The notes beneath the pieces were generated by a model, which saw only the letters and a program-made list of their open reading frames with translations, made no database searches and had not been told where the DNA came from. Both the position numbers and the translations under genes were made by a program. DNA of 53,067 nt, filler included, from Jimgerdemannia flammicorona (Eukaryota): the NCBI GenBank assembly GCA_003990765.1. It is 3 parts of 3 records of this genome, joined end to end, with 100 filler letters (N's around TTAATTAATTAA, not from the genome) between each part and the next. Parts side by side here need not be neighbours in the genome. Positions count along the whole stretch, not along the records: positions 35,454 to 53,067 come from RBNJ01002469.1; 2 more parts are not named here. One strand, 5' to 3'. This document shows, in pieces, positions 6,931 to 51,559 of the stretch; positions within the stretch are counted from its first letter, which is position 1; each line of letters starts with the position of its first letter.

Positions 6931-6959
6931 GTTTTCCAATTATCTTCACTCTCTTCATC

Positions 6960-8402: not shown

Positions 8403-8405
8403 AGT

Positions 8406-17480: not shown

Positions 17481-17633
17481 TGTGACGGTACAGCCGAATT
17501 TGGAAGAAGGAAATAGGGAATAGACACTTGATCGCACCCATTCCCAAAGTAGTATAGCCTTATAGTTAGCAGTCCTCGATTTCGACATTGTCTAATTTCT
17601 TAGACATTGTCTAAATTTTAGACATTATCCAAA
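17481..17633 (+). repeat. Start of another LTR of the 2198-8859 family, cut by the contig end
   Basis: TGTGACGGTACAGCCGAATTTGGAAGAAGG... matches the reverse complement of the LTR end at 2651/8859, and keeps cytosines and guanines that those copies have lost. Confidence 0.9.
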
Positions 17634-17733
17634 NNNNNNNNNNNNNNNNNNNNNNNNNNNNNNNNNNNNNNNNNNNNTTAATTAATTAANNNNNNNNNNN
17701 NNNNNNNNNNNNNNNNNNNNNNNNNNNNNNNNN
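17634..17733. other. Artificial contig-joining linker
   Basis: 44 N + TTAATTAATTAA (stops in all six frames) + 44 N. Identical to 35354-35453. Confidence 0.98.
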
Positions 17734-20330
17734 AAAAAAGAGCCACTCAGAATGGCAGAGCAGGTGATGACCTGGCCATGAGTGTAGAATATCATACCAC
17801 CACTGTAAGTCAGTGGCTAGTTGAGGAGGTGGAAAATGCTGCCCCGCATAGGGTGGTTTCCAAGAGGAAGCAAAGCGAATGATGCCATCGCAAAACACCT
17901 TCCCATCTGGAAGTATTTGAACAATATGCATAAGATGGCCCGAGAGTGATTGAGCTTCATGGTGTGAATACGGACATAGATGGTATGATCGAGTCTGCTG
18001 AGCTGGTGTAAGCCATGATGCTAGTAAGGTGAGAATGCATGTGTGTTTCTCCATTGGGAGACTAATCGTCATTGTTGGAGTGTTGAGAATGAAGCCAACA
18101 TACTCTATAGTTGGAGTAGGAGGAATATCTTTGGAGGGTTTGAGTGGGAGGCCAAATCAAGATGTGGTAGCATGAAATTGATTATAGGAGGAGAATGCGC
18201 TGGACAGAGGTGCGATATAGATAAAGTCATCAACGAAATGGCCCAAGTTAGGAAGTTCATATAGTTGAATACAGATCCAGATAAAGAGGTCCATGGGAGA
18301 TGTGAAGATAAAGGGAGCAGAGTGAAGACCAAAGGGGAGGAACATGTCAAGGAAGAAAAGACCAAGCCAGCAGATATCCTGCATAGCCCAATCGGAGTGG
18401 TATACTGGGATGGTGTGGAAGGCGTCAGCCACATCGGCCTTCCAGAAGAGCACAGTAGAGCCAACTGAGAGGATAAGGAGAATGACAGCTTGAATGGACT
18501 GGTACTGGATTGAGAACTCCTCAGGATCGATTCCATCATTGACTGAACTCCCATAGGGAAAGGATAGATGTTGTATAGTATGAAATTTGGACGAGTGCTT
18601 CTTAGGAATGGTACTAAGGGGTGCATTGCGAAAGGGGTGGAATTCTGGTGGTATGGAGGAGAGAGATGAAAATGGGCCAAGATAGCGACCCGCAGCTAGC
18701 TTGGTGAGAATGTTGGTGGAGAGAACTTCTTGGTGCTAGTAAGCGAAGGTAAGGTTGTCGGATATGAGGTCGATGTGAAGCTCAGGGTGAGAGTGATTTC
18801 CATACTGATAACCATGGTAGAGACCTGTTAGGTGGTACTGAATGAGTGATTGGTTTGGATGTGAATGCAGTATCCTTTTCCACTCCTTAATATAGTACGG
18901 GGTGGTTGGGTGACTAGAAGTGGGGGGAATCGAGAGATTAGCCATAGCGAGCAGAGCAAGCTAGAGCTGTGTGAGGTCCATAGCAGAAGAGGCATATGTG
19001 CACTCGACCGTAGTTTCGATAGGAGTAACCAGAGCTGTTAAAGTTATGACAGACTGAGCTTGCTGCACCATCTGGATAGATAGAATCGTCTGGCTTGGAT
19101 GGGAAAGTAGGATGCTGGAGTGGGATTTGGGTGCAGGAGCTAATAGCATGTCCCTGCACCCTACATTGAAAGCACAAGAGGTTGGTGGATGAGACCAGTT
19201 TTGGGCCACTAGCTGGGTGGGCAGTTGATGAACTTCCCACCACATGAGATCCAGCATAGGAGAACGTAGAGCAACATTGATATGCTAAGGGTGCTGAGGA
19301 AGGTTGGCCGAGGATTGTCTCGAATGTATGGTGAACCATGTCTGGATTGCCAATGTCCAAGTCAGGGAAGGAGGCCTTGAGTGTACGAACTTGACAGTTG
19401 AAGTGTTGAAGTGCCACCCAGTTATAATGATCATTTATCGCTTTAATGATAAAGATTGCATGGGCAAGAAGTTGAGGAGCATGGGATGCATGCGAGGTCG
19501 ATTAGGTGGTACCCAGAGCCAGTAGAGCACCTCAGATGTTAAAGATGGCTTCGAGCCACAGTGGTAGATCTAGGTCATGGTTGGGCATGTGTATATCTGC
19601 TTTATTGCGACTGCTTGATTGTGAAATGAGAGCACTGCCGGTCCATTTGGATAGAATCTGATAGTCGCCCGCATCTAGTGATGCCAGCAAGTCGGGCGGT
19701 ACCCAATTCCATCAAAGTATGGCATCCGAAATAAGAGACGAGGAAGACTCACCACTTTGCAGATTTGGCAGCGATTGCGACGTCAACCTTGTCATGAGAG
19801 GTGGTGGCATAAAGGGGGCCATGGCTGAGGGAGGAGTAGTGGCCGGTAGAGGAATTGCCTGTAACAAGCCCACTGGTAGCCCTGATACTGGCAGAGTAAT
19901 TAAGTTGGGGCCTGTCGGTATGATGGATGGATGTGTTGCAAGGCACCCAACTAAAGTGGGGATTAAGTATTCAATAAGGGCATCTTCAGCTTGCTCTCCA
20001 ATAATTGGCTGAGGTGGAGGGTCAGGACTTAGATGGTGCGAGTTGAGACATGTAACTAGTGCAGCTTTTTGACCTTCAACTGGCAGATGATGTTCGTGAC
20101 ACAGTGCGACTAGCTGTTCTTTGCGACAAGTGCATAGGCCAGATAGATTGGGAATGGGGGAGGGGTGAGATTCATGTAAGGGGGCTAGGGGGGCAACCGG
20201 TCTTGGGGCTATAGCTGGTTCCAAAGGACCATGAGACCAAGTGCGAATTGGGGGCATTGTGAATGTGGTACACGAACTGATTGTAAATACTAGCAACTAA
20301 TTGCAACTTGGCATAGTATACATCTGACTA
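17734..20330 (-). mobile_element. DIRS/Ngaro-type retrotransposon, 5' part (gag + RT), truncated by the contig end
   Basis: Gag 20257 to 18938 has CFQCRVQGHAISSC and a C-terminal VCHNFN...HICLFCYGPH..AC. Overlapping ORF2 from 18945 has GRYLGPF, WKADVADAF, LPFGLHSAP, HFVDDF and DLQWW, typical of DIRS/Ngaro RT. The tyrosine recombinase is not in the window. Confidence 0.85.
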
Positions 20331-20559
20331 GCTGAGATGTGACGAATACTCAGTCGCTGGACTGATTACATTGTTACTAACTCACATTAATGGTTGGTGT
20401 ATTTTTAAAACACCACTAGCTAAGTTATCTTTGGTGTAGAAAGGGACAAGAAACTGCATGAAATGAGCTAAACTAAGTCCACCAAGGGGAAATTGTATGA
20501 TTGTTCTGCATAATGTTAAGCGGCTCTTGGCCACTTTGCTGAAGTTTGAATTGCATTCA

Positions 20560-20679
20560 TAACTATATAATATAACTGCTATTTATAAGGCTATACTATA
20601 TTTGGGAATCAGATTCAGGTGCCATAATCAAATGTCTATTCCTCTGATTTATGTTCCTAATTTGGATCAACTATTATAA
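20560..20679 (-). repeat. Diverged remnant of a Gypsy LTR related to 2198-2651
   Basis: aactgct..tataa..ctatacta..tttgggaat...atcaaatgtctattcc...ttcctaatt aligns by eye with 2559-2651. Confidence 0.65.
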
Positions 20680-20759
20680 TATATATACTAATTACTTTAT
20701 ACAATATATAGACCTCTTTAATATAGTTTATATCTCTTATCTTTTATAGTATTATTGAT

Positions 20760-22240
20760 ATCTAGGGTCACCTTCTGCCCCCCCACCCCCTGACCTCTCT
20801 CAGCATTTGTCCTTACTGCTTATCCCAGTCCTCCTGCAGTACATCAGTTCTCTCTCCTCTTGTAGACATATCATACTACACTTGGGCCTCCTCTACCATT
20901 ACCTCATTCTCAGCTACTGTACTCTGCCTAAAACCTTCACTCTCTCTCAGAGTTACTGTAGGAGCCACTCTCTTCTCCTCTGCCCAAGTACTAGCTCTTG
21001 ATCTAACTTCTTCAGCAGTATTCTCTCTCTCTGCCCTCTCTCTCAAATTTACCAACAAATCTTCCAAATTCTGCCCCCCTTGTACTCTCTCTCAGATAGT
21101 CTAATCTAGTTATACCTTCTTACCATTTACAATCTCTACCACTGTCTTTGCCTTGAACTCCTTCCAGACTAACTGTCTCTTTTTTACTACTCTAGTCAGA
21201 TCTTCTAACACCTCTAGCAAGTCCTCCTCTTTCTCTGATGTCTTCTTCACTCTCAAGACCTTACACTCTACTGATCTCCACTTAAGTGCCACCAGCTAAT
21301 TTCTTCCTTTTCCTGTATTATTCTTGTCTGTCAGCCTTATTTTAATATTCACATTCTTAGTTCTGAACTCTATATCTTCTCAGACCTAGAATCCAATATC
21401 TACCATATCTCTATACTCCTTAATAATATCAACAATCAGCTCTCTGACCACCTCCTTCTTTACTATAGATATATTTGCTACTATTAGCTATACTACCTAA
21501 GTCTTAGCATAAGTACTGAGCCTTAGGGATCACTACTCCTCCTACTATCACTCTTTTCTCCAATACTCTCAACATCAAATCCTTCTCCTTGAAGCCCATC
21601 TCTACTCCTTCTAATCTCTTTAAGAACTTTACCAAGATCATTTCTTTTATTTTCTAGGCCAGAAGTACTAACTATTTTTACCATAACTACTAAGCCCTAG
21701 GAGTACAATGTGACAGCAAATTTGGATATCAATTTCTTGAGTAATAATGCAGCCACCAGAACTATTATACTATTAACCAGATCTCCAGGCCTCATTTTTC
21801 CCCTCTGCTTAGCCCTACTATCAGCTCTCATATCTGAATTTTTTTCCAAATTAGTAATCTCCCCTCCATCAGTAGTTCTCCTTTCCCCTCTGGCTGCTAC
21901 TCTCTCAGTTCCACTACTACTACTATCTAAAGCTATCTCTCCAGGCCCAGCTACTCTCTCCTTCTTCTTATCTCTCTGCAGCCAATCCTCCAGGCTCATT
22001 AATGGATGCCCAGCCTTAACCTTATCAGCAAAGCTCACCTTCTCTATATCTTATCCATTAGTATTAATATTTTCTCCTCAATATTTACCTACTATCAGTC
22101 AAATAAACTAGAGCCACCCTACCCAATATATACCTCAGAATGATCATTGGTTTCTATGTTACTATTACCTTTTCTCCCAAATTTATGTCAAAAGTATTGT
22201 CAGAAGTTTGTATAATCTAAGTAGTACTAAAGAAAGGTGA
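20760..22240 (-). mobile_element. 5' UTR + ORF1 fragment of a LINE related to 9896-15678
   Basis: SFADKVK, RPGDLV, LKWRSVECKV and KRQLVWKE match ORF1 of the first LINE. The 5' end shares gacaatactttt. ORF2 is absent. Confidence 0.85.
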
Positions 22241-22945: not shown

Positions 22946-23252
22946 ATAAAATAGAAAATATTTCAATCTAGATTAAATTCAAATTAAATTGAGATCTGAT
23001 TTATTTTTATTCATATTTAATTCAATTTAAGGTTGAAAGTCAAAATTTAAAATATAATAACTCAACAAAAATATGTTCAAATTTGATGATCTTTATTATG
23101 CTAAATTTTCTAAATTGGGCTGAAATTTGGACATATTTTTATTTAGTTATTAAATTTCAAAAATTTATATTTGAATCCAAATCAGAATTGAATTGAATGG
23201 AATATTTCGAATCCAATCAAATTCAATTCAATTCGATTTGTTGGGAGAACTA
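22945..23252. mobile_element. Related palindromic MITE (sister subfamily, left end lost)
   Basis: Right end TTGGGAGAACTA. Shares AATTGAATT-type subterminal repeats and the ATAACTCAACAAAAATATG inverted arm, but has a different centre. Confidence 0.7.
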
Positions 23253-26200
23253 CATAGTATACTTCTTATCATAGTTGTATAGCTTGTATCCTTGTAGCTG
23301 ATAGACATAAAGTTCAGTATCTATGTCACTATTCAGGAATGTATCTTTACATCCATCTGCTGTTCAAATTTTTTGTCCCCACAATACTTCAAACCGTGAG
23401 CGTAGAAGTCGCGGCGGCTGGGTCTCTGCTGTATGCAACCTGCCCATCCTCTTCCCGAAACGGGTTGAGCTGTACGAAGCAAGCATGATTAAAAAGTTAG
23501 GCCCGTCATGCCCTCCCGCTCCATCACTTGTGGGTCAGAGGTGCGTGAACAGAAAATTCACATCTACAAGTGAAGAACAAATGCTGTGTAGAGCGAGTAC
23601 TGGGCATGGGCTTGCCGTTGATGGTCAACAATGTGAAGTAAATACCTGATCGTATATTCAAACAAGTTTTCCATCAAGGCAATATATTCGGGTGTATCAC
23701 ATTGAGTGAGTACTGGACAAAGAGACCACCCCAAGCCAAGGCTATGCTATGATTACCAAACCAATTATCAAAGCATTCCACCGGTGCAAAAATCCTTAAT
23801 ATCGATGCCAATGAGCGAGTACTGGGTAAAGAGACCACTCTACGTCCCGGCCCCGTTCGCCGGTCGCTGCCATATGCCAAGGAACAGAGCACTGCCTACT
23901 ACTACCTTCTAATTGCCACCATCGCCAAATACCTGGCTGGTAAGTATCCGCTGATTTGTAGATTTTGGTGATGTGCTGTCGGATCGGCTGGGTCCTAAAT
24001 GGCTTTAATTACTTCTCCTTTTCCTTCCCCCCTTTACACAGGCATCGGCGTTATGTACATTCACATTTTCGAGCAGCGCAAGAGGTACCTCGGTGCGGCG
24101 AGCAAGGGAAGGCGGTCAGGGCAGAGTAAAGTACGGGTGCTGGGCGGTGTGTGGTAGACATACCCGTAGATGGGATCTTTTAGATATTGGAAACGATGAT
24201 ACCAGAGAGTTTGGCGATAGGTGATCATATTCGGATCCTCCAGATACATAATAAACGTCTACTTTTGAATAGTTTTAAGCTCGACAGTCATCTGTTTTGG
24301 CAGTGGTTTCGTTGTGGTCGACGTACGACGATGTGTTATAGTATTTTTTTTTTTCTTTTTCTTAAAAGTTCGTTGGTCGAAAGAAAAGAGTTTGGTTGGT
24401 TATACTTATGATGAAGACTCAAGCTCAACAAACGTTTGGTACGAATTGACATGTCCAACCCAAGGACTTTGACCTTGTTTCACGCGTGGGCGCGATATTC
24501 ATCAATATCTGCCCCACATGAAGGCGGAACCTCTTATCCGCTTGATTTTCCCTCGGCGTTCAGCTTTCTTGTCCTACTCCTTCATCCCCTATTTACGGCT
24601 TGATAATTTTAGTAATTACGGGGAAAATCCTGACTCAAGCACAGCCCCACCCCCCACCCCCCCCCCAAGGTACTCCATCGATAAGAGGGGTACATTGACA
24701 ACAGGTGGTCACTTGTGATTGAAAGCACGTCAAGATTCTCCTCTTCCTTCATTTGTCTAACCCCATGTCCCATTCCCACTCTTCCCCACCAACAGAAAAT
24801 AGAAGGATCTCATCAATTTCTTCTTTCATTGGTGTAATAAGTGGATAGCCAGTGAAATTTTGCAGGAATAATGTCCAGGTTAGAGGCATGGAGTTGCATT
24901 GTATTTATGAGAGCCAATGAAAATAAACAAAATTTAATGACCCAAAGGTTGGCCTGTACGCCTGTACTCCTCCTCGATATGGCCATGCTGACCTTTTGTA
25001 AAAGAAATCCCAAAAAAGGTGTCAAAGGACTGGAATCGTTGGAAGCCACCATTGTTGTTGGTATTTACTACGGTGATAATTTTGTGATTCTTCTTGCATA
25101 GCCGTTTCAAACATATCGCCCCAATTGCACGAGAAAGCATCAGAAGCTTCGTTTCCAGGAATCATATAGAGCTTTAAGAAGTAAAAGGAGAATTGGATTC
25201 CGAAGAACAAATTGTGTGCTCAATCACTAACTGGAGCATTCAGAGTCGTTTGGCGAGTTATTGTGAGTGCGGAGATTTACGAATTCGAATTTTGGGAGAG
25301 TCCAAAATCTCAAAATTTTGTTCCACCAATCAGTGTCATTGGTTCAAGGGCGGGCACGGCTGTGGGGAGTTAAATAAATTCGGACCGGGTAAAGCCTGTC
25401 CTTCGGGCCTTCTTCTTTTCTCTTTCTGGGAATATGTAGGCACCTCCATCGATATCAGGAACAACAATGACAGTAGGATATACAAAGTTGCCTGCTTCAA
25501 GAAGAATGGCAGGTGAGTTAATTCATCTTGAAAATCCGGTCTCTTATGCTCGAAAGCACGTCAAAATGTCCTTTTCTATCGCCATGGCCCATCCCCACTC
25601 TATCCGCAAACAGCAAATACAAGGATCTCGAATTTTTTCGCTTTTATAGGCATAATAAGTGAAATATAGGGTTCGCTTTATTATAGTTAAAGTTCGGGAT
25701 AGATGTATGAATGCAGATTTATTATTCAGAACTTGAGGTATTGTGACCCAGAGCCCAGCCTATGTTCTCTCTTGCAAGTACTACTATGGCAACGTTGACC
25801 TTCCGACCAGTTGAATGGGCTGTTCGCTAATTGTCCACTGCCGCCATTTCTGACGGAGAAGACGAAAGAAGAAACACAAAAAAACTAATTCAAAGGACAG
25901 GAATCGTTGAAAGTTGCCGTCGATATCTGGCATCTACTTTTTTCATAATGTTGTGATCTTCTTTGCATTGCTGCTGTATCGACTCAAAAACAGAATCGCT
26001 CAATTCCAACAATATTGCGCGAGAAAGAACCGAAGCTTCGCTTCCGAAATACACGTACAATAAATATGAAAAAGGAAAGGATCTATATGAATTAAAAGGA
26101 GAATTGGGTTCCCAAGAGGAAATAATGTATATGCTTCTGGTATCACTGGAGCATTCAGCGGTTGTTCAGCGAGTATTTGGAGAATGAGGGTGTTTATATT

Positions 26201-28823: not shown

Positions 28824-31800
28824 CAGGCTATGTCGAGTTCAATCCTGGATTGAGGATTAATTGATAAAGAGCTATCAATCAATTTAATTCTCTACTACTT
28901 CAATCTTCAATCAAGTTAATTTAAAGAGATCAATCTGCTTAAATAGATTGATAGATTGATATATATAGATATACTCAGATAGAAAAAACTTACTATATGT
29001 AAAATGTAAGTACAAACTGATATAGATAAGTATTTACTATATATAATAATATAGATATATCTAAATACATATGTCTCTATCTTTTTAAACTATAAATATG
29101 AGCACTCAGCTGATGCAGCATATGGATCCAGTGGTAGATGATCTTGTATTGAATCTAGGAAGTATATATGGAGTTGAGGATTCCAGTTTCAAGAGCCAAA
29201 GCACAATTCCTGATGCCAACAAAGATGATGTATATAAGGACATCAACTGGTTATGTCTATCTAACTATCAACAGCCATTTAGACCCCTGAAAGGAAAGAA
29301 AAAGAGCTGGGTATAAGAGCATAGATATATGGTTTAAGAAAGAGATACAAATAAAGACAAGAAAAAGATCTTCTGAGTCTGCAAATACTGTCACCAGGCA
29401 TGCTATTGTAATGAGCATATATACATCTGTGACCTCTCTACTAGCAGTGCTATCAAGTATCTTATATGCTCTGATATCAAAGATCATACTATTAGTAAAG
29501 ACATGTCTCTCCAGATAAGCTAGAAGCAGAAGTATACTATACTCAAGCAGCTTCAAGAATGCTACTACATTTCTCAGAGTGTAGCAAATACACTTCTATC
29601 AACTTATATACCACAGATTTTCAAGCAGAAGATACTTAAATAGATTACTGCCAGAAACCACTCTCTTTGAGAAGTCAAGACTCTAGAATTTCTAGAGATG
29701 ATCACTATAGTAAATCAAGATATGGTTAATGATATATCTACCAAACCATCCATAATTATATCTTATAGAAATATAAAAGTTATGAGGGAGTTTTGACAGA
29801 GGTATTTGCCTCTACAGAGTTGAAGATTTATATTTTATTTAACAACTGGTCAATATATAGCCAGTAATATACTATCACTGACATCTGCATCTATTTCCTT
29901 ATAGATACTGGGAAGATGATCAACTTCCTTATCTCAATGCCAAAGCTCCTTGGTTGATATTCAGAGTATAATAACTCTGAACTTATCTCTATCACAATTA
30001 TAAAATACAATATTGTAGACTGACATAGCTATAGTATCTCTGATAATTATAAAGTAAATAATATATATATCTGGCATCTTACAGAAGAATTTGAATTCAG
30101 TCTAAAGGAATACTATATTCACTATATTGTTTATATCATCAACCTTATAGTACAGGTACTACTATTTGGTATAGATAAAGACTCCTTTAAAAATGAGACA
30201 GAGAATATTTCAGAAGAATAAAAGTTCCTAAAGGAGTGGCAGCAAATATTTAGGAATATTGATTGACCTCATTGACCATTATAATACTCTACAGCATCAT
30301 CAGCTATTAGTGCAGTTCTAAGAGGAGGGGAATACAGCTCATTTATCCTTAAACTTCAAGGTTTGGGAGCTATTTAGGCCAATCAAAACTAGATGGAATA
30401 GCTATCTTGATGTATTTCATTATATACTACAGCTATATAGTCCATTGGATGCATATGCATAGTACTGGATCAATGGGTACTATTGCAAAATTATCACATA
30501 GAAGAGGTTAAAGAAAAAGAGAAAGAAAGTAGAGATCTTAAAGCCACCACACTTTATTAATGCTAGAGGCCTTAGCTTATGACTGAGGTGTCATCTACAG
30601 CTATGTGAAGCTTCTGCAGCCTTTGAAAGAAGCTACAAAATGCATTGAGGCTTGAGATGGACTATCTATTGAAGATATTTGAGGATACAAAGGAGCATAT
30701 CACAGAAGCTACTCAGAAGGAGTTCCCAGACCAGCTACCCATAGAGAACTATAATAAAATCAATATTAACAGAGCATAGAGTAAGCTGAACCACTACTAC
30801 ACACTGCTCAATGACTTACCAGCATACTATGCAGTAGTAGTACTATATTCAGCTCTTAAAAGATACTGTACCAATATATGGAAAGATCAACCAGAATAGC
30901 TTATCAGTAGTGAGACTACATTCAAGAGGCTTTGGTTTACATATAAATCTCAGCTACTAAATTAAAGCCTGCTGCACTGCATGCAGCAGCCAGCACCCAG
31001 AATTAGTGCTCCCAATGAATCAAATTGAATTAAATTGGACCTAAATTCGATTTAATTTGAAAACTTCAAATTGAATTGAGGCCCAATTTGATTCAAAGTC
31101 TAATTCAAACCCTATTTTTAGAATTTTAATAACTCGACGAATATACATCCAAAGTCAATGATCTTTAGCTTGTTATATTCCTCATATATAGAGGAATCTA
31201 ACAAGCTAATGATCATTGAATTTGGATGGGTATTCGTCGAGTTATTACATTTCTAAAAATAGGGTTCAAATCAGACCTACAATTCAATTTGATTTGAATT
31301 GATTCAATTCATTTTGGAGCACTACCCAGAATGATGTCAGCTTTTACTGTTCATTTACCAGCGACAATACTGAGGCATATGATGATGAGATCAATGAATA
31401 TGAGTAGTAGAAGGTGAGGTATTCAGTTTCTATAGACAATGAGAGTATAAATGACTTTATTCAGTAGTGGTGGTTCCAGCATGCTGAATTTCCACATCTT
31501 TGCCATATGGCAATGGATATTCTTACTATCCTAGCTGCTAGTACTGATGTGGAAAGAGCTTTTAGCAAGACTGGTGACTTGCTAGAGCTCTGCTGCTTAT
31601 AGCTTGAGTTGGAAATACTTGGTATACTATAGTGTTTAAGAAACTGGAGTTGAGCTGAAATAGTAGACTAGTAATAGTAGCAGTAGCAGTAGTAGTAGTA
31701 GTAGCAGAAGTGGGAGGACTATGTAGTATATATAGTTATGAATACAATTCAAACTGTAGCAAAGTGGCTGATACTACTTATTGTACACAATGTATATATC

Positions 31801-35453: not shown

Positions 35454-36920
35454 CCGAGAGTGTCACCTACCACCTAACCGCGCCGCACCAATCAAAAGGC
35501 CCCACCGAAGCAGCACCTGCCCCAGCCCCGATGACCGCCCCCAGCCTGGCACCCTACTGGTTCACCGTAATCGCCCTTCCGCCTATCTGTGATGGCCACC
35601 TCCCCTCCCATCCCGACAACACCCGAAAAACAGTCACCTACGCCAGAACCGCGCTCGCCGGGAAGCTCGCCAAAGCCAGAGGGCCCCACCACAGGTACCG
35701 AGGACCTGCAGGTAACCTATACTGAGCACTTGACGCCCAAGGTCGGCCGACTCCCTACGTAGCCCGAGACATACCGAGACAACTCCTTGTTGGCGACGGC
35801 AAAAGGAAGAAGGCGCCACACCAAAATGGGTACACCCCAGACGCAGCTGAAGGCACCAGAATCTGCGAAAAAGTGGAGGAAGCACCGATCCGACACCGAT
35901 AAAAGGGCAACTCATCACCATTGCCCTCCTCCCACCATGCCCCTACAGGTACAGCAAACCAACCCGAGGTAGAGGGGGTAATATTAGGGGAAAGGGAACT
36001 CGGAAGGTCGCCTACCAAACCTTGTGACCGGTAAGGTAGCGGAGAAAGGAGCTGTCCGAAGGGCAAAGAAAAACCCTCATCAAAGTACAATACAGTGGGT
36101 AGGGCCTGGTTCTCCCAGTTGAGATGAGTAAAGAACTTACACATGAGGTAGGAGGAGACCCCCAATACCCCACTACTCAAGCCTGTAGGCCTCGATCACA
36201 TTGCTGTATCAGCTCCCAGTTCCAGTTGAGTGCAGCCAAGATGCCTGAAATGGATAGCCTCAGGCCTCCTGACCCCCCCTGATGACTGGGGCCCAACCCC
36301 GCTGACTGCCAAAAGAAGCTGATAGTGACACCTATCACCTAACCATGCTACACCAATCAAAAGGCCCCACCGAAGCAGTACCTGCCCCAGCCCCAATGAC
36401 CGCCCCCAGCCTAGCACCCTACTGGTCCACTGTTATCGCCCTTCCTCCTATCTATGATGGCCATCTCCCCTCCCATCCCGACAATACCTGAAAAGCAGTC
36501 ACCTACACCAGAACCATGCTCGCCAGGAAGCTCGCCAAAGCCAGAGGGCTCCACCACAGGCACCGAGGACCTGCAGGTAACCTACACTGAGCACTTGACA
36601 TCCAAGGTCAGCTGACTCCCTATGTAGCCCGAGACATACCGAGACAACACCTTGTTGGTGATAGCAAAAGGAAGAAGACACCGCACCAAAACAGATACAC
36701 TCCAGATGCAGCCAAAGGCACCAGAAACTGCGAAAAAGTGGAGAAAGCACTGATCCGACACTGATAAAGGGGCAACTCATCACTATTGCCCTCCTCCCAC
36801 TATGCCCCTACAGGCACAGCAAACCAACCCGAGGTAGAGGGGGTAATAATAGGGGAAAGGGGACTTGGAAGGTTGCCTACCAAACCTTATGACTGATAAG
36901 GTAGCAGAGAAAGGAGCTGT
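35454..36920. repeat. GC-rich direct repeat, period 865 bp (35454-36055 vs 36319-36920)
   Basis: About 602 bp align at offset 865 at both ends. Differences are mostly transitions. Confidence 0.92.
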
Positions 36921-37340
36921 GCGTGAATGTCTCTGATACTTATTTAATAAGTATGGAAGTCCTGATAAATGATCTCCATTGGCTAATGTGTGCGTCCTTA
37001 TGGGTCATTCATGTGGCCCTTTTCTTTCTCTACTCCTTTTTTTTGTTTGGCATCGTACATTCTTCCATGTCCCTTGGTCTTGAATACAAAAACTCTGGGA
37101 AATGTTCCACATCGGCTGGGTGTGCGTGGCGAGCGGGCTAACAGTGAGCAATGAGCGAGTAGTGCGGTTGATGGACTGGTGGTGTGGGGTGAGCGGCAAG
37201 CGATGGTTGAAGCTGATGTACTAACAGACGATGCTGTTGAAGGATCTTCCTCCGGGTTATCTCTTTGGGTCTTAAGCACACCAATTGGGCATATGGTGAT
37301 TTCAAGGCAGTGATGTCTAGTAATTATCAATGCTATCTAT

Positions 37341-38836
37341 TGTAACGGTGACCCCAGAATGATGACATCAGCACAGGAGACAGCCTTTCTTTACAAGCCA
37401 CCAGATCAGAGTACAAGAAGATCATATGGCATGTGAGATGAGCAACGATGACCAACTGTGAGTCATTGTGACTACAGCACAAGCATTCTGAAGAATATAA
37501 AAGAAGGATCAAGGAACCGCAGTAGCAGCAACCAACAAGAACCCCAATCTCAAAATAGCTCAAAGACTTACCACAAACAAAATGCCTGCTGCCCGCCAAA
37601 CCTCAAGGTCAAGGAATCATCAAGGTATCTCGGTCGAGGAAAGGATGTTTCAAGACATCAGAAGAGCCATGAGGACCCGCTCAAGAAGGACTCCTAGCAT
37701 CAACCTGGGTACTGCAGACCCTTATCACTTTATCCTCTACCGCCGTGAAATGGAAACAAGGATCACCATTGCCACCGAATGCCTCCAAATGTGGCAGGAG
37801 TACGAAATAGGAAACCTCCTCTGCTGGGAGTTCCCACAGGCCAGCCCTCAAGAGCTACAAGATGCCACCCCCATAGACCTACGTGAGGCAAGGATAGCAA
37901 AGAAGATCCATCAGATCTTCAGGCATGCACCATGGTCGATCCCCAACTTGGAGTCTCAGACTTCAGAGACCTGTCATCCCGCCGCATCAATGCACTAGAA
38001 GCCAGGGTAGCTACAGAAGCCCAGTCCGCCATCACCCTCAACAGCGAAGAAGTAGAAGACTTCTGGCACCCTATCCTTCAGGACAACCCAGACCAATTTC
38101 TGCAAGGGTTGATCTCAGTATTCCAAGGCCCAAGCATCCAGGTCAGACCTCCCCAGGACCCCACATTTGTCCCTTACTTTGTGGAAGAGAACCTCATAGA
38201 CTGGAGAGCTCCAGATTTTGTCCCCGATTTCCCCGCCGAACGTGATGACGTCATCGGCGATGACGTCATCCCGCGCGACATACACGAAGTACGCGAAACA
38301 CGCGACCTGCATGAAGAGTTCGCGGATCTCATCTCCTTCAGTGATGATGATGATGAAGCTCCCATGATCCTGAACTTTCTGCTCTAAAAAGTTCTTTGTT
38401 ACACTGGATAATGCCAGCACCAGTATTCTCATGTAACACTGGATAATGCCAGCACCGGTATTCTGAGGTGACACGAAATTGTTCCAGCATCGGCATTTTG
38501 ATGTGATACTAAATAATGCCAGCCTTGGAACTTAGTAGTTTTAGTTATTGGAATTTATATTTAGCTTTATATCTTAGCAACTATTGAATTATATTTTGTA
38601 TAAATACCTCTCTTATTTCCTCTGAAATAAAGTCAGTTCTATCCGGTTCACTTACACACTTCCTTGCAAGCAATCTAAGAGATAACAAGACAGTTAAAGA
38701 TAAGAAGTTTGAGGACTATAAGACCTTGGGAAGGCACTCTAATAAGAACTTGCTTATAACAACTTGAATTAGTCTAAGAGATACACCTTGAAGAGAATCT
38801 GGCATATTTGAAGGACTCAGCGACCACTACGTGACA
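37341..38836 (+). mobile_element. 1.5-kb solo LTR (Gypsy-type) with an ORF in U3
   Basis: TGTAACG...CCACTACGTGACA ends; the 3' end resembles CCACTACGTTATA of the 454-bp LTR. 4-bp TSD CTAT. TATAAATA 38599-38606 then AATAAA 38626-38631. ~35-bp duplicated motif at ~38398-38465. Confidence 0.85.
37582..38387 (+). pseudogene. U3-encoded ORF3-family protein, one frameshift near 37950
   Basis: WQEYEIGNLL...IAKKIHQIFRHAPWSIPNL / GVSDF...PILQDNPDQFLQGLISVFQGP...NLIDW. Aligns with 49060-50079 and 2647-3150. Confidence 0.8.
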
Positions 38837-39284
38837 CTATCTAAGCCAACCCATAATACAATTTCCTTCTCAACTACTCGCAAGAGCCATCCTACCTCCG
38901 ATATGGTAACATGTTTATTCGCCATTATGTACATAGGACACGCCACAGGAAATCGCAACCAGAAGTTTGTCACCTTCCAGCCCGCAATCTCATCAATAAA
39001 CAACTTGTGCATCAGGGCTCCAATCGAGCCGCCGAGCAGGCCGCATACATATGCCGATACGTCTTTCACCTACCACACGCAATAATAATATCATTATTAT
39101 TAATTTCATAACCATTAACAGCAGATGAAGCAAGAAACAAGTACATGTATATACACATCGAACCAAGCAAAACATATCCCCACCGCACTAACCTGAGTCA
39201 CGCTCTCTCTCTACTTCCCATATCCCCTCCCCTTTCTGCCTCCAGCATCCTTTCTGATATACTCCTCCTCTGATACCACCTACA

Positions 39285-39548
39285 ATACCACCTCACCAAC
39301 ACCACCTCACCAACACTACCTCACCAACACCATCTCACCAATACCACCTCACCAACACCATCTTACCAACACTACCTCATTAATACCACCTCACCAACAC
39401 CACCTCATCAATACTGTCTCACCAATATTACCTCCTCACCAATGCCACCTCACCAACACCACCTCACCAATATCATCTCACCAACACTGCCTCATTAATA
39501 CCACCTCACCAACACCACCTCACCAATACTGCCTTACCAACACCACTC
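39285..39548. repeat. 14-bp minisatellite (ACCACCTCACCAAC)n, about 19 units
   Basis: Direct reading; unit variants are mainly C-to-T. Confidence 0.9.
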
Positions 39549-39579
39549 TCAATTTAAGAGTAATAACCCCTATGCTCCA

Positions 39580-40860
39580 TCACGACGCGTCCCTCTGCTC
39601 TTCTGAACTTTCACCTTCGCTCCCAAAGAACTCATCCATTAATGCTCTACAACTCCACAATGCGTAGACACAGTTCACGTGCCTCGCCGCGACGGTATGC
39701 GGGCCCCATCCGAAGAGGGTGAGTGCGGAGGCCGTGGCACGGATGCGCGGATCGACGATAGTGGGGTCGGCGATCGTGATGATGTCGAGTTGATCGGCAA
39801 TCTGCCGAGAAATAAGAGGAGCAGATTGAAGCTGATTAAATCTGGAACCACGGTACGACCAAGGCGAGATGCAGAACATGGACGCGCGGGGTTTACCAGT
39901 GGATGTGTGGTGACCGGTAGCTGGTCACCGATCTTGAAGCGGGGCCGACGTTGGGAAATGTGTAAATTGAGGCTGAGTGGTTTAGTGGATGAATTCATAA
40001 AAAAATAAAAAATAAAAATAAAAGATTGTTAATGAAATCATATTCGAAATTAAACGCTGAATTCCAACCCAACCGTGACCATGAAATTCCAAATCTATTC
40101 CGATTTACCATAAACATTCTTTAACCCCTCCTCAATCATTAATTCTTCCACTTTACTTCTCTTCCCAACCATCGAAAAGAAGCTCCCAAACAGCCCAGCC
40201 CCTTACTCACCATCGCAAGGATAGTCTCGCCACGAACACGGCTGTTCACGCGATGTGCTCAGCTCCACCTTACACTTGGCCGTCAATTCTTCGCCTACCG
40301 CAACCAAAAGACAATAACCGTTCCCCACCCATGACCAAGTAATCCACTCAAATATCCAAGCTAAACGTGGACGCCTATTCACGCCTCTCCCCTCCGCCTC
40401 GTCTAGATATGCGGAAATCCGCTGGCGGAGCAGAGTGCGCACCGCAAACGCTCAGACGCGACGTTGATCCAGCCGTAGCGCGTGCAGTCGACGGGTGTAA
40501 TAGGCCTATCGAACCAGGTCTATCCGTGGGCAGAACGGTCAAGGACGGATGTCGTGTTGGATATAGGAAAGAGAGACGAATGTGTGCGCAAAATAAATAG
40601 AGGAATGCGAATTTTGTCGATGCTTTATAGGTCACCAAACGCGCCATAAAATAGCTCCGATCCCATTGCCGGTACCGGTTCAGCGGGTGGACGGGAGGAC
40701 AAGACTCCTGTGAGGACGTATATATATATATCAAGCAGTAAATGATTCGATCGCTTTGCACTGACAAACACGACAAGATAAAGCTGTGAGACCTACTTTG
40801 GACCTCCGGCAGAACTGCCCCGCTCGTGATATCGAGTTTCCGTTTCGTGACCCATTGGTC
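39580..40860 (-). pseudogene. zf-C3HC / Rsm1 (Pml39, NIPA/ZC3HC1-like) pseudogene with introns
   Basis: Ordered exon remnants TKRKLD; YRQWDRSYFMARLVTY; TWFDRPITPVDCTRYGWINVASERLRCALC; EELTAKCKVELSTSREQPCSWRDYPCD followed by a GTGAGT donor; ASALTLFGW. Premature TAG at ~40404, a missing donor and His-to-Arg at a zinc ligand. Confidence 0.82.
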
Positions 40861-45032: not shown

Positions 45033-46150
45033 CTATTGGTGACTCTTGGAAATCAACACCGCCATGACATCTTAAATTAACTCAGGCGCGGCTGTTTTCA
45101 GCAACCCCTTGAACGCTTCTGTTTTCCTTACATCGTCAAAATTTTTTCTGAGATATATACTCGATCAAGCCGTCCTTCAGGGTGGAGGAAACGTGACTGT
45201 GCGTCGCAAGCAGCTGGCACACGAGACGGGGGTTGAGTCTGCCGAGAATCTTGGGCTCGGTGATGTCCACAACAAGAGGGACACGGTACTTGACAGCAAG
45301 GAGGGATAGATCTGCCGGATTAATATCGTCGTCGAACTCGGTTTGGTCGTAGTAGATGTATTTGAGTAGTGCCTCGAATGCCAGATATCCGACATCAGGC
45401 ACCTCAATCACGGTGCGGGGGTCTGAGTCGAACATATCAGCAAAGTATTTGGAGCGAGTGGACAACATCCCGCGGTGCGCGTAGAGTGGACTAGCCCCCG
45501 GCCCGACACGGAATTCGACGTCAGCAGTGCGCACGTTATTGAATTGGGTGGAGAGACCAGCGAGAAGCGTGCGAGGCAGGAAAAATCTTCGGTCGCGAGA
45601 GGAGAGGATACGACAACTAATGAAGAGCTTGTCATCGGGGAAACCTTCGTTTTCAAAGGGCCGCTTCGCGGCCTCGTGTGTTCCTTTAATATTCAAAATG
45701 ACAAACATTAACTATTTAACGGTAGTGGTTGGGGTATTCAACGACCATGTGTTGACAAGTACACCAAAAATACGTATATACCATGGCGTTGCGGATTATC
45801 ACCCGGGCAGAACTCGAAAGTAAAAGTATTAAAATAGAGTTCCTCCTTCGTCGTCCTTATGTGGAGCTCGAAGTTCAAGGTGACACAAACTTTCGTTGGT
45901 TTTATCGCCCAAAGTTAAAGGGCTATGTTGACGTTCGGAACTACAAAGCGAGAGAAAAACCCAAATCATCTGCGACCCCAACCTTTTGTGCACATCAAAA
46001 GCTTTCGTGTATTTACCGGGCAGAGTTGCAGACGCCATGAGTGGGTATCAGTAGTCGGAAAGGCGGGCAGGAAAAGTTCGTAGTCAGCGTGGAGAACCTT
46101 TCCACAGCCCATTCGTAAAACCCCTCCGGGTCGGAAACGCTGGCATCCAT
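45033..46150 (-). pseudogene. MATH-BTB (SPOP-like) protein, probably a pseudogene
   Basis: BTB: ADVEFRVG..LYAHRGMLSTRSKYFADMF..IEVPDV...FEALLKYIY. MATH-like FYEWAVERFSTL, WRLQLCP and DDKLFISCRI. Frameshifts near 46080 and 45140, plus a stop in exon 2. Confidence 0.8.
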
Positions 46151-48853
46151 GGTAAAAGCAACGCACCTTTGAAACTGAAAAAATGAATTTAAATACAAAG
46201 CCGACGTTGTGATTCCACGTGCTGACATCGCTTATGGTACCAAGACAACCTCCTGTTATTCAATAATCAATAATCTGCCAAAAAGCACAAATGCACAGAC
46301 CCGAAAAGGCAGCTGGTCAGATGGCTTCTACATATATGAATTCCAATACTAGTCGGAAGAAATACACAAAAAATTAAAAAATAAAAAATCAATCGGTTCT
46401 TTTGATCCCGATAAGCGAAGTCCTCAGCGGTTCCTTTTCATTTCCATCGGAGCTACCCAAAGGCCGTTGACTTGACAGTCGAGGGCGCATGTCGAGGCAA
46501 ACTCTGTCCCGGAGGCTAGGGCAAGCAAGTCACTAATGAGGAGATAATGCTAAAAGTTGGCTTAGTGTCATTAAGCAAAGAATAGTATGAAACACGCGAC
46601 GGGTATCATACACCTTGGGTGTAGTTACGGGTGTGTGCAGTAGTCCTGGTGTGCGTTTGCGCGGCTCCTTTAAGCCAACGGAATGTTGCCAACACATCGA
46701 AAATCGCCTAAGCCTATCCATAGCCTTGAATGGCGGTTCCATTTGGGTTCGTATTGCAGTAACTTCAGTGCTAACCTTTCCATGCGTTAAGAAAATGGCA
46801 GAATTCAGGAACTGTTCCACAAATAGAAAAAACCATACGGAACGATCAAATATAAACCTCGAACTTAACTGTAACGCCACACACAGTTTTAAGTCCTTAC
46901 GCATTCAGACTCAGTGGCGTTGTGCAAGCGACCTTTGTTTTGGACCTCGCCGACCAAGTGTATCACGTGTCATATAGATACGAACAACGTTACTAGCGCT
47001 AGTGTTGTCCCCTACAATCATGACAATGTCATGAGATTCGTCAACACCCTATCGTTCCACGTCACTGAACAGCGAGCAACTACATTTAATGTAGGCGACA
47101 ACGTAAACGTCACTTCGTGAGTATGGTTTTATGTGAAAAAAGACCGAGTGTCAGCGCACTTATCGTACTCTTCTCTTCCAGCGACTTAATAGATTTAATT
47201 GTACCTCATGACTGACGAGGCCTTTATTAAAAGCACAGGAATTTCGCTGTTGGCAAGTCAGTCGTTCATGCTTTCTAGACAAGATTGACCATTATCCTTT
47301 TTAAGTTCTTGTCTAAGTGTATATGTCAAGTTCTACTGTTTATTGTACCCCGTAATGGAAGTAGGGCCCGGTTCGGACTTTACTTTGATACTTCCCTACG
47401 GGATTATCATATTGTCAACACTAATGCGGAAACAAATTTCAGCATAGAAGCGACCTTTGTTTTTGGGCCTGACTGATCTGGTGCATCATATGTCAAGTAA
47501 ACAAAAACCACGTTACCAGCAGCCACTGTCGCGAACTATTTGACCAATTCTCACCTTCTCCATGAAATTTGCTATGAAATTCATAAGTTTCGTCATCACC
47601 CTATCGTTCCTCGCCTCTTCTTTGATCATGTCCTTCTTCTTGTTTAGTAATTGTCTCAACTTGAAATACTCTTGAAACTTGGCACAATTCTGATAGACTC
47701 TAAAGTGTGAAATACATGATAGGTAGATCTGTATGATATTTTGAATACTATCAAAGGAATCCTCCATAGCTGGTAGCTTAGTAGAACACCATTATTTTTC
47801 TATAGCTGCTGGGCAGCACTTGGGATCTTGAGGGCCAGAGCAGTATTTTATTAGTTAGCTCTAATACTTCTTGAGTCAGTTTCAGTAGATAGTAGTGAGA
47901 GTGATTATGTCTGATAGTTTTCATAGCCAAAGGTAGTTTCTTTTATATTTTGTATAAGGTAAGGTTCTTCTCATTTAGGCTTCAGTTTTTATGACCATAA
48001 AGCTTCTACTATATTTTGATATATTAGAACTTTATCTTCTATCTTAATAATCTCTGAGAGCTTGTAGATCTTCTCTATATTATTTTATTATAATTTCTAT
48101 ATCTTAATTATATAATTATCAGCCTTTTTTCTTATTTGGTACAATCTCTATATCTTGGCATCTATGTATTTCTATACTATATCTTTATTAGATAATAGCA
48201 TTTCTTTAGAACTTTCTTCTCTGAACAGCAATTTCTGAGAGATAAAATGGGTACTTTGTGATTATATATTCTGGAGAGTAGATAATACTATTGGCAGATA
48301 GTAGTCTCAATTTTTATAGTTATTACAGATCTTAGCAATAATATTCTTGAGAGTCTTGTTAATTCTTTCTATCTGTCTACTTCTTTAAAGATAATAAGCT
48401 ATGGTTTAAATGTACTAAATCTTGTACTTCTTATAAAGAATCTCAAAGAGCTAATTCATAAATTCTATCTCTCTATCTATCATTACTTGCTTTGAAGTCT
48501 TGAATTAGCAGATGATTTCTCTGTAAAAGAAATCAGCAATTGACTATATATTGACTTCTTTAAGAGATTCTACTTCTATTCATTTTATAAAAAGATCTAT
48601 AATAATAATAATATATTAGTTATCAGTCAATATTAGTAATAGGGAACTAATTATGTTTATTGAAATATGGGCAAATAGTACTAATTCTATATCTACTGAT
48701 TCTGGTATCTAATTTTATTAATCTTACTTCTGTTTCTAGTATTTGACATAGGTCTTGACAAATTATCTGATATCTTTCCCTATTTTAGATCACTATATTG
48801 TTCTTTTTATCTTGTTATATATATTTATTTCTTCTAGATAGCTAAGTTCATAT

Positions 48854-51255
48854 TGTGACGTACACAATTGACAATGGAGTACTGGTGACTGCTAAGGTCA
48901 GACGACATAATGGCGTAACAATCAAATAGACAGCCTGACCCATTAGGTGATCATCCCAAAGAAGACAAGATGATCCGAGCCAAAATGAAGACCACGTTAT
49001 TTAAGGAACCATACCCCACTTCAGGGATCGGCACCAAAGAACCAAGTACCCACCACACAATGCCTCCCACTCGCTGAACCAACCAGACCTCCCGCTGCTC
49101 TACCCCTCTGCCTGGCCCAAAGACCCTGATCTTTGAAGCTATCAAGAAGGCCATTTGGCACCCAGATACTTCCGAACACTTGAACTTCTACACCGAGGAC
49201 CTTGGACACTTCATTAACTACTGGTATATAATGACCCAACAGCTCAAAGACACTACCGAACGAATGACCCTCTGGCATGACTATGAAATCGGACACTGCC
49301 TTCGCAATGAGACTCAAGAAGATGACCGGGAAGGCCTCATTACCGAATTGATAACCACTAGCCGGCTAATCAAGAGAGCCCTCCGTGTCCACCAAATCTT
49401 CCACCATATTCCCTGGGCCATAGCACACTTATAAGGAGTAACGACTGGCAGCCTTTCTCGCCTTTCAACTGAAGATGCTGACTGGATAGAATCTGAAGTA
49501 GCCAACTCTATTGGCAGCAACCATGTCGCTGTAGGAAGTCAACAAACCGAACCTACTCAACCAGGTTTCCATACCACCCCACTCCGAGACAACCATCAAG
49601 GTCACCTAATGAGCCTTATGGAGATGTTTGAAGGACCACCCATTACTATAGAAGCACCTGTTGGAGCTACCCCTACCACCCACCACCCTGTCAGCTACAA
49701 TTCACATCTCATCATTTGGGAACCGAATCAAGAAGAAGCCCAAGAGGTCCCTGTCTTTAAAGAGGAAGCCCAAGAACTCCAAGACCCTGCCCCTGAAGAA
49801 ACCCCCTCTGACACCGAAACTGACAAGCCTTCAGAAGAAGAAGAGGAGCAACAGAGAGTCTACTAGTCCTCTGTCCGCATTCAAGCTGTTCAAGGGTTGG
49901 AGAATGTTGTTGAAGATGACTGGCCACTTTTCTACCCCCTCACCTCTTGGCCGGCACTTCCCCCTTTTGAGGAGAGGTATGATGAAGAAGAAATCTTAAC
50001 CCAGCAAGATTTGCCTGCCGCAGACAAAGGGTACTATTTCCTCTAGAACCACCACCTGTCAGCCATGAGAATTGTGTAGCCTTCATGTCAGCAAGTCTGA
50101 ATCCAGCATTACCACCCACAACATCCATATCCAGCACTAGCACTCATCTTATTCCTATTCGGCGCAAACAATTGTCACACCCATTTCCAGCGTTGCTATC
50201 CAGTGCCACCGTTTTCAGCGTTTTGTCAGTAAGTCCGAATCCAGCGTTACCACCCACAACATCCATATCCAGCACTGCTATCCCCTACAACCCAATCCGT
50301 AGTAAACAATAGCCTGCACCTCGCATCATGCAAACCAATAGCATAAGTTCGCCACAACGTAGTATACTTTAACCTTAGCTGCACCCATAGCTAGCAAACT
50401 TGTATAAATAACCCATATTCTTAGAGTGAATAAACCTCAGTCAACTGGTTTTGAGAAATAACCACTGCCTCCAAGAGACCAGATAAATTCTGAGAACAAG
50501 ATAACTAGAGCAATGATCGCTTGAGGTTTGAGTTAAAGAATTTTCTCTTGCTACGGAAAGAAAGAAAACATTACCCGACCACCGCCATTCGACCACCGCC
50601 ATTCGAGACCCAAGTTACCCAGCCAAGGATTCAAGACCACGGACCGCCCGCCAATTTTGCTGCCATGAAAAGGATTCAAGACCACAGACTGCCCGCAATT
50701 CAGTCAGTTTGTGTTTAAAGAAAACGTTACCCGACTGCCACCATTCAGACCGCTATTCGGACCGTGCAATTCGACCGCCATTCGAGGTTCAAGACCCGGA
50801 AACCCAAGGATACCCAGCCAAAGGATACAAGACAGCTGCCAAAGACCCGAATGACTGCCAGGAACCTAACAAGTTAAGACGGACGAGCAAGCCGTCAACC
50901 TCCGTTTTTCCAAGCTACTGCGCCACGAACCGCTTAAAGTCAAGACCATCGCCCACTTTAATTGACCGCATAACGAGCAAGCCCGTCGTCGCCGAGTTTG
51001 CCGCCAAGTTAATCACTGCCAGGAAACTTAGCCAGCACAATCAAACGACCTCATCCACTAAACAATTGAGCCACCATCGTTGAACAATGGAAGTCCTGCT
51101 ATTCTATTATCAATTGCCGCATGAATCGAACGACCTGTCACGTGACCATCGACCTGCGAACGTCACCAACGCACTCAGTTATACATCGCGTGCTTCACCA
51201 AGTGGCATACATTGAGCCGTGCAGTCAAAGTTCATTATACATAACCAATGCCACA
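48854..51255 (+). mobile_element. 2.4-kb solo LTR (Gypsy-type) with an ORF in U3
   Basis: TGTGACG...TGCCACA ends with 4-bp TSD ATAT. Core GCAAACTTGTATAAATAACCC...GTGAATAAACCTCAG (~50394-50440) is nearly identical to the TATA/poly(A) core of the 454-bp LTR. ~52-bp duplication at ~50087/~50226. Confidence 0.88.
49060..50079 (+). pseudogene. U3-encoded ORF3-family protein with acidic C-terminus
   Basis: Single frame from ATG 49060: WHDYEIGHCL...RALRVHQIFHHIPWAIAHL*GVT...PLRDNHQGHLMSLMEMFEGPP...HLIIWEP. Stops are revertible C-to-T changes. True end uncertain (49866, 50046 or 50079). Confidence 0.8.
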
Positions 51256-51559
51256 ATATACTGACTTCATTGTATATTCCTTCTTATACTCTGATATAAC
51301 TGGTTGTTTTTCTTTTTTTAGTATTTCTCTATAAGTTTTAAATTGTTTTCAGGTTCTGTTGATAATTATTTATATCTATTCTTCTAGATATTGAGGCATC
51401 TTTCACTATCTCAGATAGATAATAATTCTATAGTAAAGTTCTTTATTTATTTTAGTTTTACTGATTATAAGTTCTTTAAGATATCTGTAAGAGTATATCT
51501 ATATTTGTATTGGTTCTTTCTGAGTAGTACATAATGGTTATTTTATAAACTTGTAGCTT

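Follow-up and report, generated by a model that had tools for sequence, protein, structure and literature searches.

In mouse mammary tumor virus (MMTV), sag, which is the superantigen gene, is an open reading frame (ORF) within the unique 3′ (U3) region of the long terminal repeat (LTR). Foamy-virus tas/bet (bel) and lentiviral nef are accessory genes located at the 3′ end and extending into U3. Foamy viruses possess an internal promoter, and their activator Tas binds DNA and has an acidic activation domain. During reverse transcription, U3 is copied to both ends. Extra genes have also been described in LTR retrotransposons. The Boty-like Gypsy elements of Botrytis cinerea are reported to contain brtn, a gene of unknown function that lies antisense in the internal region (Zhao et al. 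2011, as cited in PMC8365987), and LTR retrotransposons of bdelloid rotifers have acquired third ORFs, which are described as internal (PMC5408684). A literature search with incomplete coverage of subscription journals yielded ORFs in U3 or the LTR only for MMTV, plus the antisense brtn of Boty, and nothing on an ORF in sense orientation within the LTR of a Gypsy retrotransposon, fungal or other. Here, we analyzed a stretch of 53,067 nt from the genome of Jimgerdemannia flammicorona (GCA_003990765.1), consisting of three parts joined by filler and in the following called the window. We conclude, with a probability of roughly 80%, that the sequence at 37341-38836 (unit 1) is a Ty3/Gypsy solo LTR whose U3 holds a complete small gene.

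Compared with these systems, unit 1 resembles MMTV sag in that the whole ORF lies inside U3, so that both LTRs as well as endogenous copies contain it. Whereas MMTV belongs to the vertebrate betaretroviruses, unit 1 belongs to a Gypsy retrotransposon, and by Pfam no sequence relation connects the two. Unlike sag, the gene in unit 1 has a conserved TATA box of its own. Sag, a membrane glycoprotein, acts on host T cells, whereas the unit 1 protein lacks such features and ends in an acidic tail. With foamy-virus tas/bet and lentiviral nef, the gene shares the position of a 3′-end accessory gene at or across the U3 border and, by prediction, a separate upstream promoter. Those genes overlap the border, whereas the ORFs of unit 1 and of a second solo LTR in the window (unit 2) lie wholly inside U3, and the homologous ORF3 of a full Gypsy element in the window lies wholly outside. 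The TATA box 5′ of ORF3 is located at the end of the integrase region, comparable to the internal promoter of foamy viruses. The architecture of Tas, DNA-binding with an acidic activation domain, is the one we propose for the unit 1 protein, but neither sequence nor clear fold similarity connects it to the foamy-virus or lentiviral genes. The gene brtn is likewise an extra gene in a fungal Gypsy element and absent from gene annotation (PMC8365987); by its description, it differs in being antisense and internal, the unit 1 gene being sense and in the LTR. For the bdelloid-rotifer elements, a term search of the publication turned up nothing on ORFs located in the LTR or running across its edge (PMC5408684), in contrast to the ORF of unit 1. 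By analogy, the U3 genes of complex retroviruses would be the closest functional parallel to what appears to be an element of Metaviridae type whose U3 bears an accessory gene from a new protein family.

The boundaries of unit 1 were read directly from the sequence (Table 1). It is 1496 bp long and has the form TG...CA (TGTAAC...GTGACA), starting with TGTAACGG at 37341 and ending with CGTGACA at 38836. Both this unit with its CTAT duplication and the presence of an ORF of ~270 codons with one frameshift, 5′ of the TATA and AATAAA motifs, had been proposed in an earlier sequence-only reading, and both are borne out. An in-frame stop codon at 37498-37500 precedes the ATG at 37582, so the ORF cannot reach the left edge of unit 1 and lies entirely inside the LTR. 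Its second part, in the -1 frame, comprises a conserved middle region and the acidic tail, with the stop codon at 38385-38387. Each of the 35-bp repeats that follow the ORF opens like the 5′ end of the unit 1 LTR (GTAACAC / GTGACAC). The TATAAATA box and AATAAA both lie 3′ of the ORF. A TGTATAAATA...GTGAATAAACCTCAG block homologous to the TATA region of unit 1 is found in the paired LTRs of the full Gypsy element, in unit 2 and in the related contig L001. Between the part of unit 1 behind the ORF and the 454-bp LTR of the full element, DNA similarity is weak (z 2.6) apart from a collinear terminal motif. There is no second DNA copy of unit 1 within the window. A derivation of its first 240 bp from the 3′ end of an integrase gene was considered and is not supported (z 1.7).

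Table 1 Features of the LTR-borne gene and its relatives in the window, with the support for each.
Feature	Position	Strand	Support or remark
Left target-site duplication CTAT	37337-37340		read directly; recurs at 38837-38840
Right target-site duplication CTAT	38837-38840		read directly
Ty3/Gypsy solo LTR (unit 1)	37341-38836	+	TG...CA, CTAT duplication, contig depth and junctions elsewhere
TATAAAAG box, proposed promoter of the LTR-borne gene (inferred)	37496-37503	+	86 nt 5′ of ATG
ORF part 1, 123 codons, MPAAR...IPNL, helical N-terminal domain	37582-37950	+	92-93% identity to P0001 and P0017
Frame break point, 10 bases missing	37950-37954	+	gap versus L001, insertion in other copies
ORF part 2, 145 codons plus stop, GVSDF...LNFLL	37950-38387	+	P0001 91% identical over 99% of part
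Tandem 35-bp repeats in U3, between ORF and LTR promoter	38398-38523	+	three overlapping 56-nt copies, 35-nt spacing
TATAAATA, putative LTR promoter box for genomic RNA	38599-38606	+	homology and position
AATAAA, predicted polyadenylation signal	38626-38631	+	27 nt after TATA box
Full Gypsy element	2198-8859	-	454-bp LTRs, ATAA duplication, protease-dUTPase-reverse transcriptase-RNase H-integrase
Polypurine tract TTCAGGAGGAAGT of the full element	2652-2664	-	same motif precedes unit-1-type LTRs in X1 and X2
Primer-binding site and leader of the full element	8376-8405	-	30/30 identical to X2 unit-1 extension
ORF3 of the full element, short homologue, two stops	2686-3150	-	family profile 22-24 bits
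Unit 2, second ORF-bearing solo LTR, other family	48854-51255	+	2402 bp, TGTGAC...CCACA
Homologous ORF of unit 2	49060-49866	+	broken by TGA 49075-49077 and TAA 49432-49434

The identity of unit 1 as an LTR follows from its copies elsewhere. We aligned Logan contigs from four public runs of four studies to positions 37141-39036; two of the runs are soil metagenomes (X1 and X3), and the others are labeled 'organism A' (X2) and 'organism B' (X7). In X1, X2 and X3, the depth is zero in the flanking bins, and it starts and stops in the bins holding 37341 and 38836. Contigs extending 5′ beyond 37341 read ...TTATTCAGGAGGAAGA, a polypurine tract (three contigs each in X1 and X2), or a related purine-rich variant (two contigs in X3); these loose ends finish in AGGAGGAAGA or AGGAGAAAGA. 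Beyond 38836, the extensions read ACTTGGTGCCCATTGG..., a primer-binding site with leader (nine contigs in X1, one in X2, one in X3). The 30-nt extension in X2 is an exact match over its entire length to the corresponding segment of the full Gypsy element in the window, with 0 such matches expected by chance. In that element, the polypurine tract lies directly 5′ of the 3′ LTR and the primer-binding site with leader directly 3′ of the 5′ LTR. These junctions place unit 1 in 3′-LTR and in 5′-LTR contexts in other copies, where the sequence-only reading had expected it to flank gag-pol. At the locus in the window, neither sequence adjoins and only the duplication is present, which is what recombination between two LTRs leaves; unit 1 itself is therefore a solo LTR. 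The LTR ends of unit 1 and the full element are alike as well (CCACTACGTGACA versus CCACTACGTTATA; TGTAAC versus TGTGAC), and the duplications are 4 bp long for all three elements, CTAT for unit 1, ATAA for the full element and ATAT for unit 2. Unit 1 is the LTR of an element closely related to the protease-dUTPase-reverse transcriptase-RNase H-integrase Gypsy element of the window.

This full element has LTRs at 2198-2651 and 8406-8859 that are ~93% identical, and its ATAA duplication is at 2194-2197 and 8860-8863. Pfam assigns, in this order, protease-dUTPase, reverse transcriptase, RNase H and the integrase zinc-binding domain. The dUTPase domain (Pfam dUTPase E 2e-19) is fused behind the aspartic protease, the protease families and dUTPase sharing one open frame of 364 amino acids at 5877-6968 on the minus strand.

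ORF3 of the full element lies between integrase and the polypurine tract, outside of the LTR, and ends just before the tract. The sequence-only reading had aligned it with the ORF of unit 1. By BLAST alone this match is at chance level (E 7.1, 9 aa), whereas a profile built from 15 family members detects ORF3 at 3150-2686 (-) with 22-24 bits over profile positions 7-139, against at most 4.9 in ten residue shuffles and 0.1 on reversed sequences. The relationship thus stands at the level of the profile but not of the pairwise alignment. ORF3 spans the N-terminal domain only. It is preceded by a TATAAAAG box at 3236-3229 (-), 86 nt before its ATG, the same spacing as in unit 1.

Unit 2 is flanked by ATAT at 48850-48853 and 51256-51259. 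It is inserted in an AT-rich, decayed Gypsy copy, and the homology between 47616-48853 and 2903-4142 stops exactly at its left edge. A tblastn search of the window with the ORF of unit 1 matched 49129-49722 in two alignments, one of 107 aa with 31% identity (E 3e-11) and one of 95 aa with 24% (E 0.008), and the family profile scored 214.6 bits on the unit 2 ORF, confirming the similarity to a 2.4-kb solo LTR that the sequence-only reading had noted. The protein P0008 is 78% identical to this ORF and has a glutamine at the position of its TAA. A TATTTAAG box precedes the ATG by 62 nt, and in the TATA/AATAAA block 52 of 56 positions agree with the block in the full element's paired LTRs (z 26). 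Behind AATAAA, unit 2 continues for ~825 bp (50440-51255), compared to ~205 bp in unit 1; this tail contains many internal direct repeats and an open frame of 183 amino acids (50532-51080) without a Pfam match, and it represents an unusually long unique 5′ (U5) region or an extra insert.

One correction to the sequence-only reading is that the full element carries its homologue as a shorter ORF outside of the LTR, on the other side of the polypurine tract. Judged by these alignments, related elements have the same gene on one or the other side of the polypurine-tract/LTR border. As a conjecture, the repeats in unit 1 that resemble the LTR 5′ end would fit a duplication of this border.

The copy of the gene in the window is broken. 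Compared to L001, it has a deletion of 10 bases (a 10-column gap in the alignment) that shifts the frame by -1. The 10 extra bases are present behind 37950 in other copies, at a depth of 753.5 of 835 in X7, and loose ends accumulate at 37954 in X1 (12), X2 (3) and X3 (4). The depth of X7 over unit 1 is high; we did not use it as evidence of expression. The homologues read straight through the position of the break. As a further correction to the sequence-only reading, the copy in unit 1 is a recent casualty, inactivated by this deletion.

Searching with ORF part 2, we matched 6 proteins among 24 candidates. The closest homologue, P0001, consists of 247 amino acids, is 91% identical and has no frame break, and intact frames are found in P0001, P0017, P0018, P0020, P0009 and other relatives. 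A profile search of 1.84 billion representative proteins returned 12 with E <= 1e-3, 5 of them with E <= 1e-30; the longest has 342 amino acids, and none is fused to gag or pol. We looked up the 23 listed members of 10 clusters, all of which come from metagenome-type sources, on contigs of 540-4848 bp. Two related loci, L001 and L002, were drawn from a smaller alignment of homologues. The 1345-bp contig L001 contains an intact ORF of 323 codons; a TATAAAAG box precedes its ATG by 65 nt, and a TGTATAAATA...GTGAATAAA block lies 3′ of the ORF. L002 (44% over 41 aa) was set aside as a chance or unrelated match on a densely ORF-packed, bacteria-like contig. A scan of viral contigs matched 55 stretches, none of which was confirmed.

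To evaluate selection, we used the 40 best-supported of 214 differences among copies, the 174 others being outside the count. Of these 40, 31 fall in the ORF and show an excess at third codon positions; 22 of the 31 are synonymous, where the kinds of mutation and the codon content would predict 9.9 (binomial p ~9e-6). In comparison with L001, the Nei-Gojobori method gave pN 0.27 and pS 0.68, and a rough ratio of nonsynonymous to synonymous substitution rates (dN/dS) of ~0.19 for the 266 codons compared and 0.14 when only the first 205 are counted, well below the value of about 1 that would have spoken against a selected protein. Between unit 1 and L001 the ORF aligns, whereas the non-coding stretch after the stop codon does not. 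Synonymous excess, low dN/dS and an alignment limited to the ORF indicate that it evolves as a protein-coding gene, evidently under purifying selection.

The encoded protein belongs to a family that, by all profile comparisons, is new and without a known gag, env or host domain. Pfam yielded no family for the two ORF parts in the window at E <= 0.01 and, for 23 family members at E <= 1, only six unrelated single weak matches (best E 0.044). The sequence profile had one match in the PDB (E 1.6), and the ESM Atlas returned only low-scoring, unnamed clusters, the best score being 0.86. These results agree with the earlier statement that the family was not recognized. AlphaFold2, run on the family alignment, predicted a confident helical N-terminal region and a disordered tail with a mean predicted local distance difference test score (pLDDT) of 66.8; for the N-terminal part of the window's protein, pLDDT is 85-94 over residues 51-120. 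The four top matches of the N-terminal model in an exhaustive structural alignment are DNA-bound helix-turn-helix (HTH) domains of the ParB type, namely VirB (3vwb), P1 ParB (1zx4) and SopB (3mkw/3mky), with Z 5.3-5.4 and root-mean-square deviations of 2.2-2.8 over 43-53 residues. They cover model residues ~68-123, and the same entries appear with the whole-protein model at Z 3.5-3.7. Among the 50 listed rows, ~17-19 are HTH regulators or sigma-factor region 4 by title. The likeness to ParB-type domains concerns the three-helix core of the N-terminal model; at 12-14% sequence identity and with only this core aligning, it is a fold resemblance and not a membership. The last 30% of the protein carries a net charge of -12 to -24 in all eight family members examined.

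Taken together, the gene would consist of the TATA box at 37496, the ORF of ~270 codons at 37582-38387 and, further 3′, the polyadenylation signal of the LTR. A TATA box is conserved 62-86 nt before the ATG in four independent contexts (unit 1, unit 2, L001 and ORF3), which suggests that the LTR-borne gene has its own promoter. From there, an mRNA of ~1.1 kb would extend to the poly(A) signal of the LTR. Because this signal is the only one 3′ of the ORF, the predicted mRNA is contained in one LTR, and each LTR would constitute a self-contained expression unit. The putative TATA box for genomic RNA lies only 27 nt before AATAAA, so genomic RNA from the 5′ LTR would begin at or after the signal and would not be cut there. 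As U3 is copied to both ends, each insertion carries two copies of the gene, and a solo LTR keeps one of them after LTR-LTR recombination. An accessory gene doubled at each reverse transcription and left behind in solo LTRs, the central idea of the sequence-only reading, is supported by the identification of the LTR and by the position of the ORF in U3.

For the product, we prefer to think of a DNA-binding regulator with an HTH-like N-terminal domain, a conserved middle region and an acidic effector tail. Like a retroviral transactivator, it would target the LTR of its own element, and there perhaps the family-specific U3 repeats. This preference is tentative, and on present odds we would consider it unlikely rather than likely. 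Between a transactivator and an anti-silencing factor, the weak HTH-like fold and the acidic tail lean toward the former. Several points weigh against the regulator: all fold matches have Z < 8, under the value from which the aligner recommends relying on them, and may reflect only a common helical arrangement, Foldseek gave nothing at E <= 0.001 (whole-protein model against PDB; N-terminal model against the viral structures of BFVD), and the N-terminal half (first 55%) is not basic, with a net charge of -9 to +2. A role in counter-defence or in another step of replication is at least as open.

Such a role defines the most serious competing explanation, to which we assign a chance approaching, yet not reaching, one in two. 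Here the gene would still be LTR-borne, but its product, instead of being a transcription factor, would counter RNA silencing or C-to-T hypermutation, or aid nuclear import, particle assembly or target choice. The same weakness of the DNA-binding evidence (Z <= 5.4, an N-terminal half that is not basic) speaks for it, and retroviral accessory genes at the 3′ end often serve such purposes. Repeats in the window are, moreover, heavily mutated. Comparing 2903-4142 with 47616-48853, the decayed copy shows for the most part G>A (109) and C>T (104) changes, the opposite changes numbering 27 and 35; this directional bias favors C before A or C, the classical indices of repeat-induced point mutation are equivocal, and CpG is near absent in the better-kept copy (5 of 248 C-starting dinucleotides). 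Such heavy directional decay of neighboring repeat copies indicates that the host mutates repeats, so a countermeasure would pay. However, the product resembles neither a known silencing suppressor nor a member of another family, and no sequence feature indicates a particular alternative activity.

Two further explanations would remove either the LTR or the gene, and several observations weigh against the LTR-borne gene itself. We saw no single contig with two unit-1 LTRs around gag-pol among the short contigs of the public runs, and the junction contigs are short (~100-250 nt), each spanning only the outer 120-140 nt of unit 1. From the copy in the window the full protein cannot be made, the homologues all stem from metagenome assemblies, and the assignments of promoter and poly(A) signal rest on sequence motifs. 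The synonymous count is drawn from the 40 best-supported differences out of 214, and dS to L001 is near saturation, making the ratio a rough one. Unit 1 might instead be a non-autonomous element in its own right, or a chimera in which an ORF3 region is joined to a short LTR, and have only the looks of an LTR. The part behind the ORF measures 449 bp, near the size of the full element's LTR, and opens with repeats resembling an LTR 5′ end; a homologous ORF lies outside of the LTR in the full element, and a paired copy of unit 1 on one contig was not seen. Yet the CTAT duplication flanks the entire 1496 bp, and depth in three runs begins at 37341 and not at 38398, with the polypurine tract abutting 37341 in other copies. 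Apart from two contigs at 38387, no cluster of loose ends is found at the inner repeats, there is no internal direct repeat in unit 1 able to act as two LTRs, and unit 2 independently shows the same layout. We therefore regard this explanation as quite improbable. Slightly less credible still is that the ORF stems from a host gene of which a piece was captured, or is a chance frame without a function of its own, kept only as regulatory DNA of U3. The lack of annotated homologues and of any known domain would agree with this, as would the broken state of both LTR copies in the window (unit 1 and unit 2). It is at odds with the third-position and synonymous excess among copies and the dN/dS of 0.14-0.19, and with conservation at the protein level across families that are no longer alignable as DNA. 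Furthermore, the gene is found in at least three LTR or element families, each with a TATA box 62-86 nt upstream, and no longer host protein contains this domain, the longest match having 342 amino acids.

Returning to the gene in U3, the LTR may be pictured as a self-contained cassette in which a promoter, the ORF and target repeats are combined with a poly(A) signal that is shared. Its product, a DNA-binding activator or a counter-defence factor, would serve the whole family and be supplied in trans by every LTR, solo LTRs included. The gene would have moved across the polypurine-tract/LTR border during its history, being ORF3 in one lineage and U3-borne in others. We put this picture forward as a possibility on the doubtful side.

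Several other features of the window were noted. Just 5′ of the solo LTR, at 35456-36923, two direct repeats of 603 bp are 90% identical with starts 865 bp apart; they could be the LTRs of a very small element or a tandem duplication. About 400 bp 3′ of the solo LTR, a 14-bp tandem array with 17 copies in register (39235-39588) sits within an open frame of 156 amino acids (39197-39667) rich in H, T, P and N. An open frame with a BTB/POZ domain (45139-45711, minus strand; Pfam E 9e-16) matched no homologue of similar length other than its own record in a collection of 5.8 billion proteins. The region 10000-21600 has a very strong GC skew of up to +0.63 per kb and contains weak reverse-transcriptase matches at 13667-13987 (+) and 18160-18735 (-); it is probably old, strand-asymmetrically mutated retroelement debris. 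An AT-rich repeat of ~300 bp with internal inverted symmetry, resembling a miniature inverted-repeat transposable element, is present in both orientations at four places (1107-1425, 16992-17362, 22974-23253 and 31001-31311). No tRNA genes were found in the window.

Retrotransposon LTRs usually count as control regions without coding capacity, and solo LTRs as relics that are inert or at most regulatory. With a conserved, selected gene in U3, an element can double the dose of its accessory gene per insertion, and thousands of solo LTRs could stay protein-coding. Such genes evade annotation because repeats are masked; the homologues identified here all lie on unannotated metagenome contigs. The occurrence of the same gene on both sides of the LTR border bears on how retroelements gain and reposition accessory genes, and the new protein family offers a handle on the elements' dealings with host transcription or genome defence.

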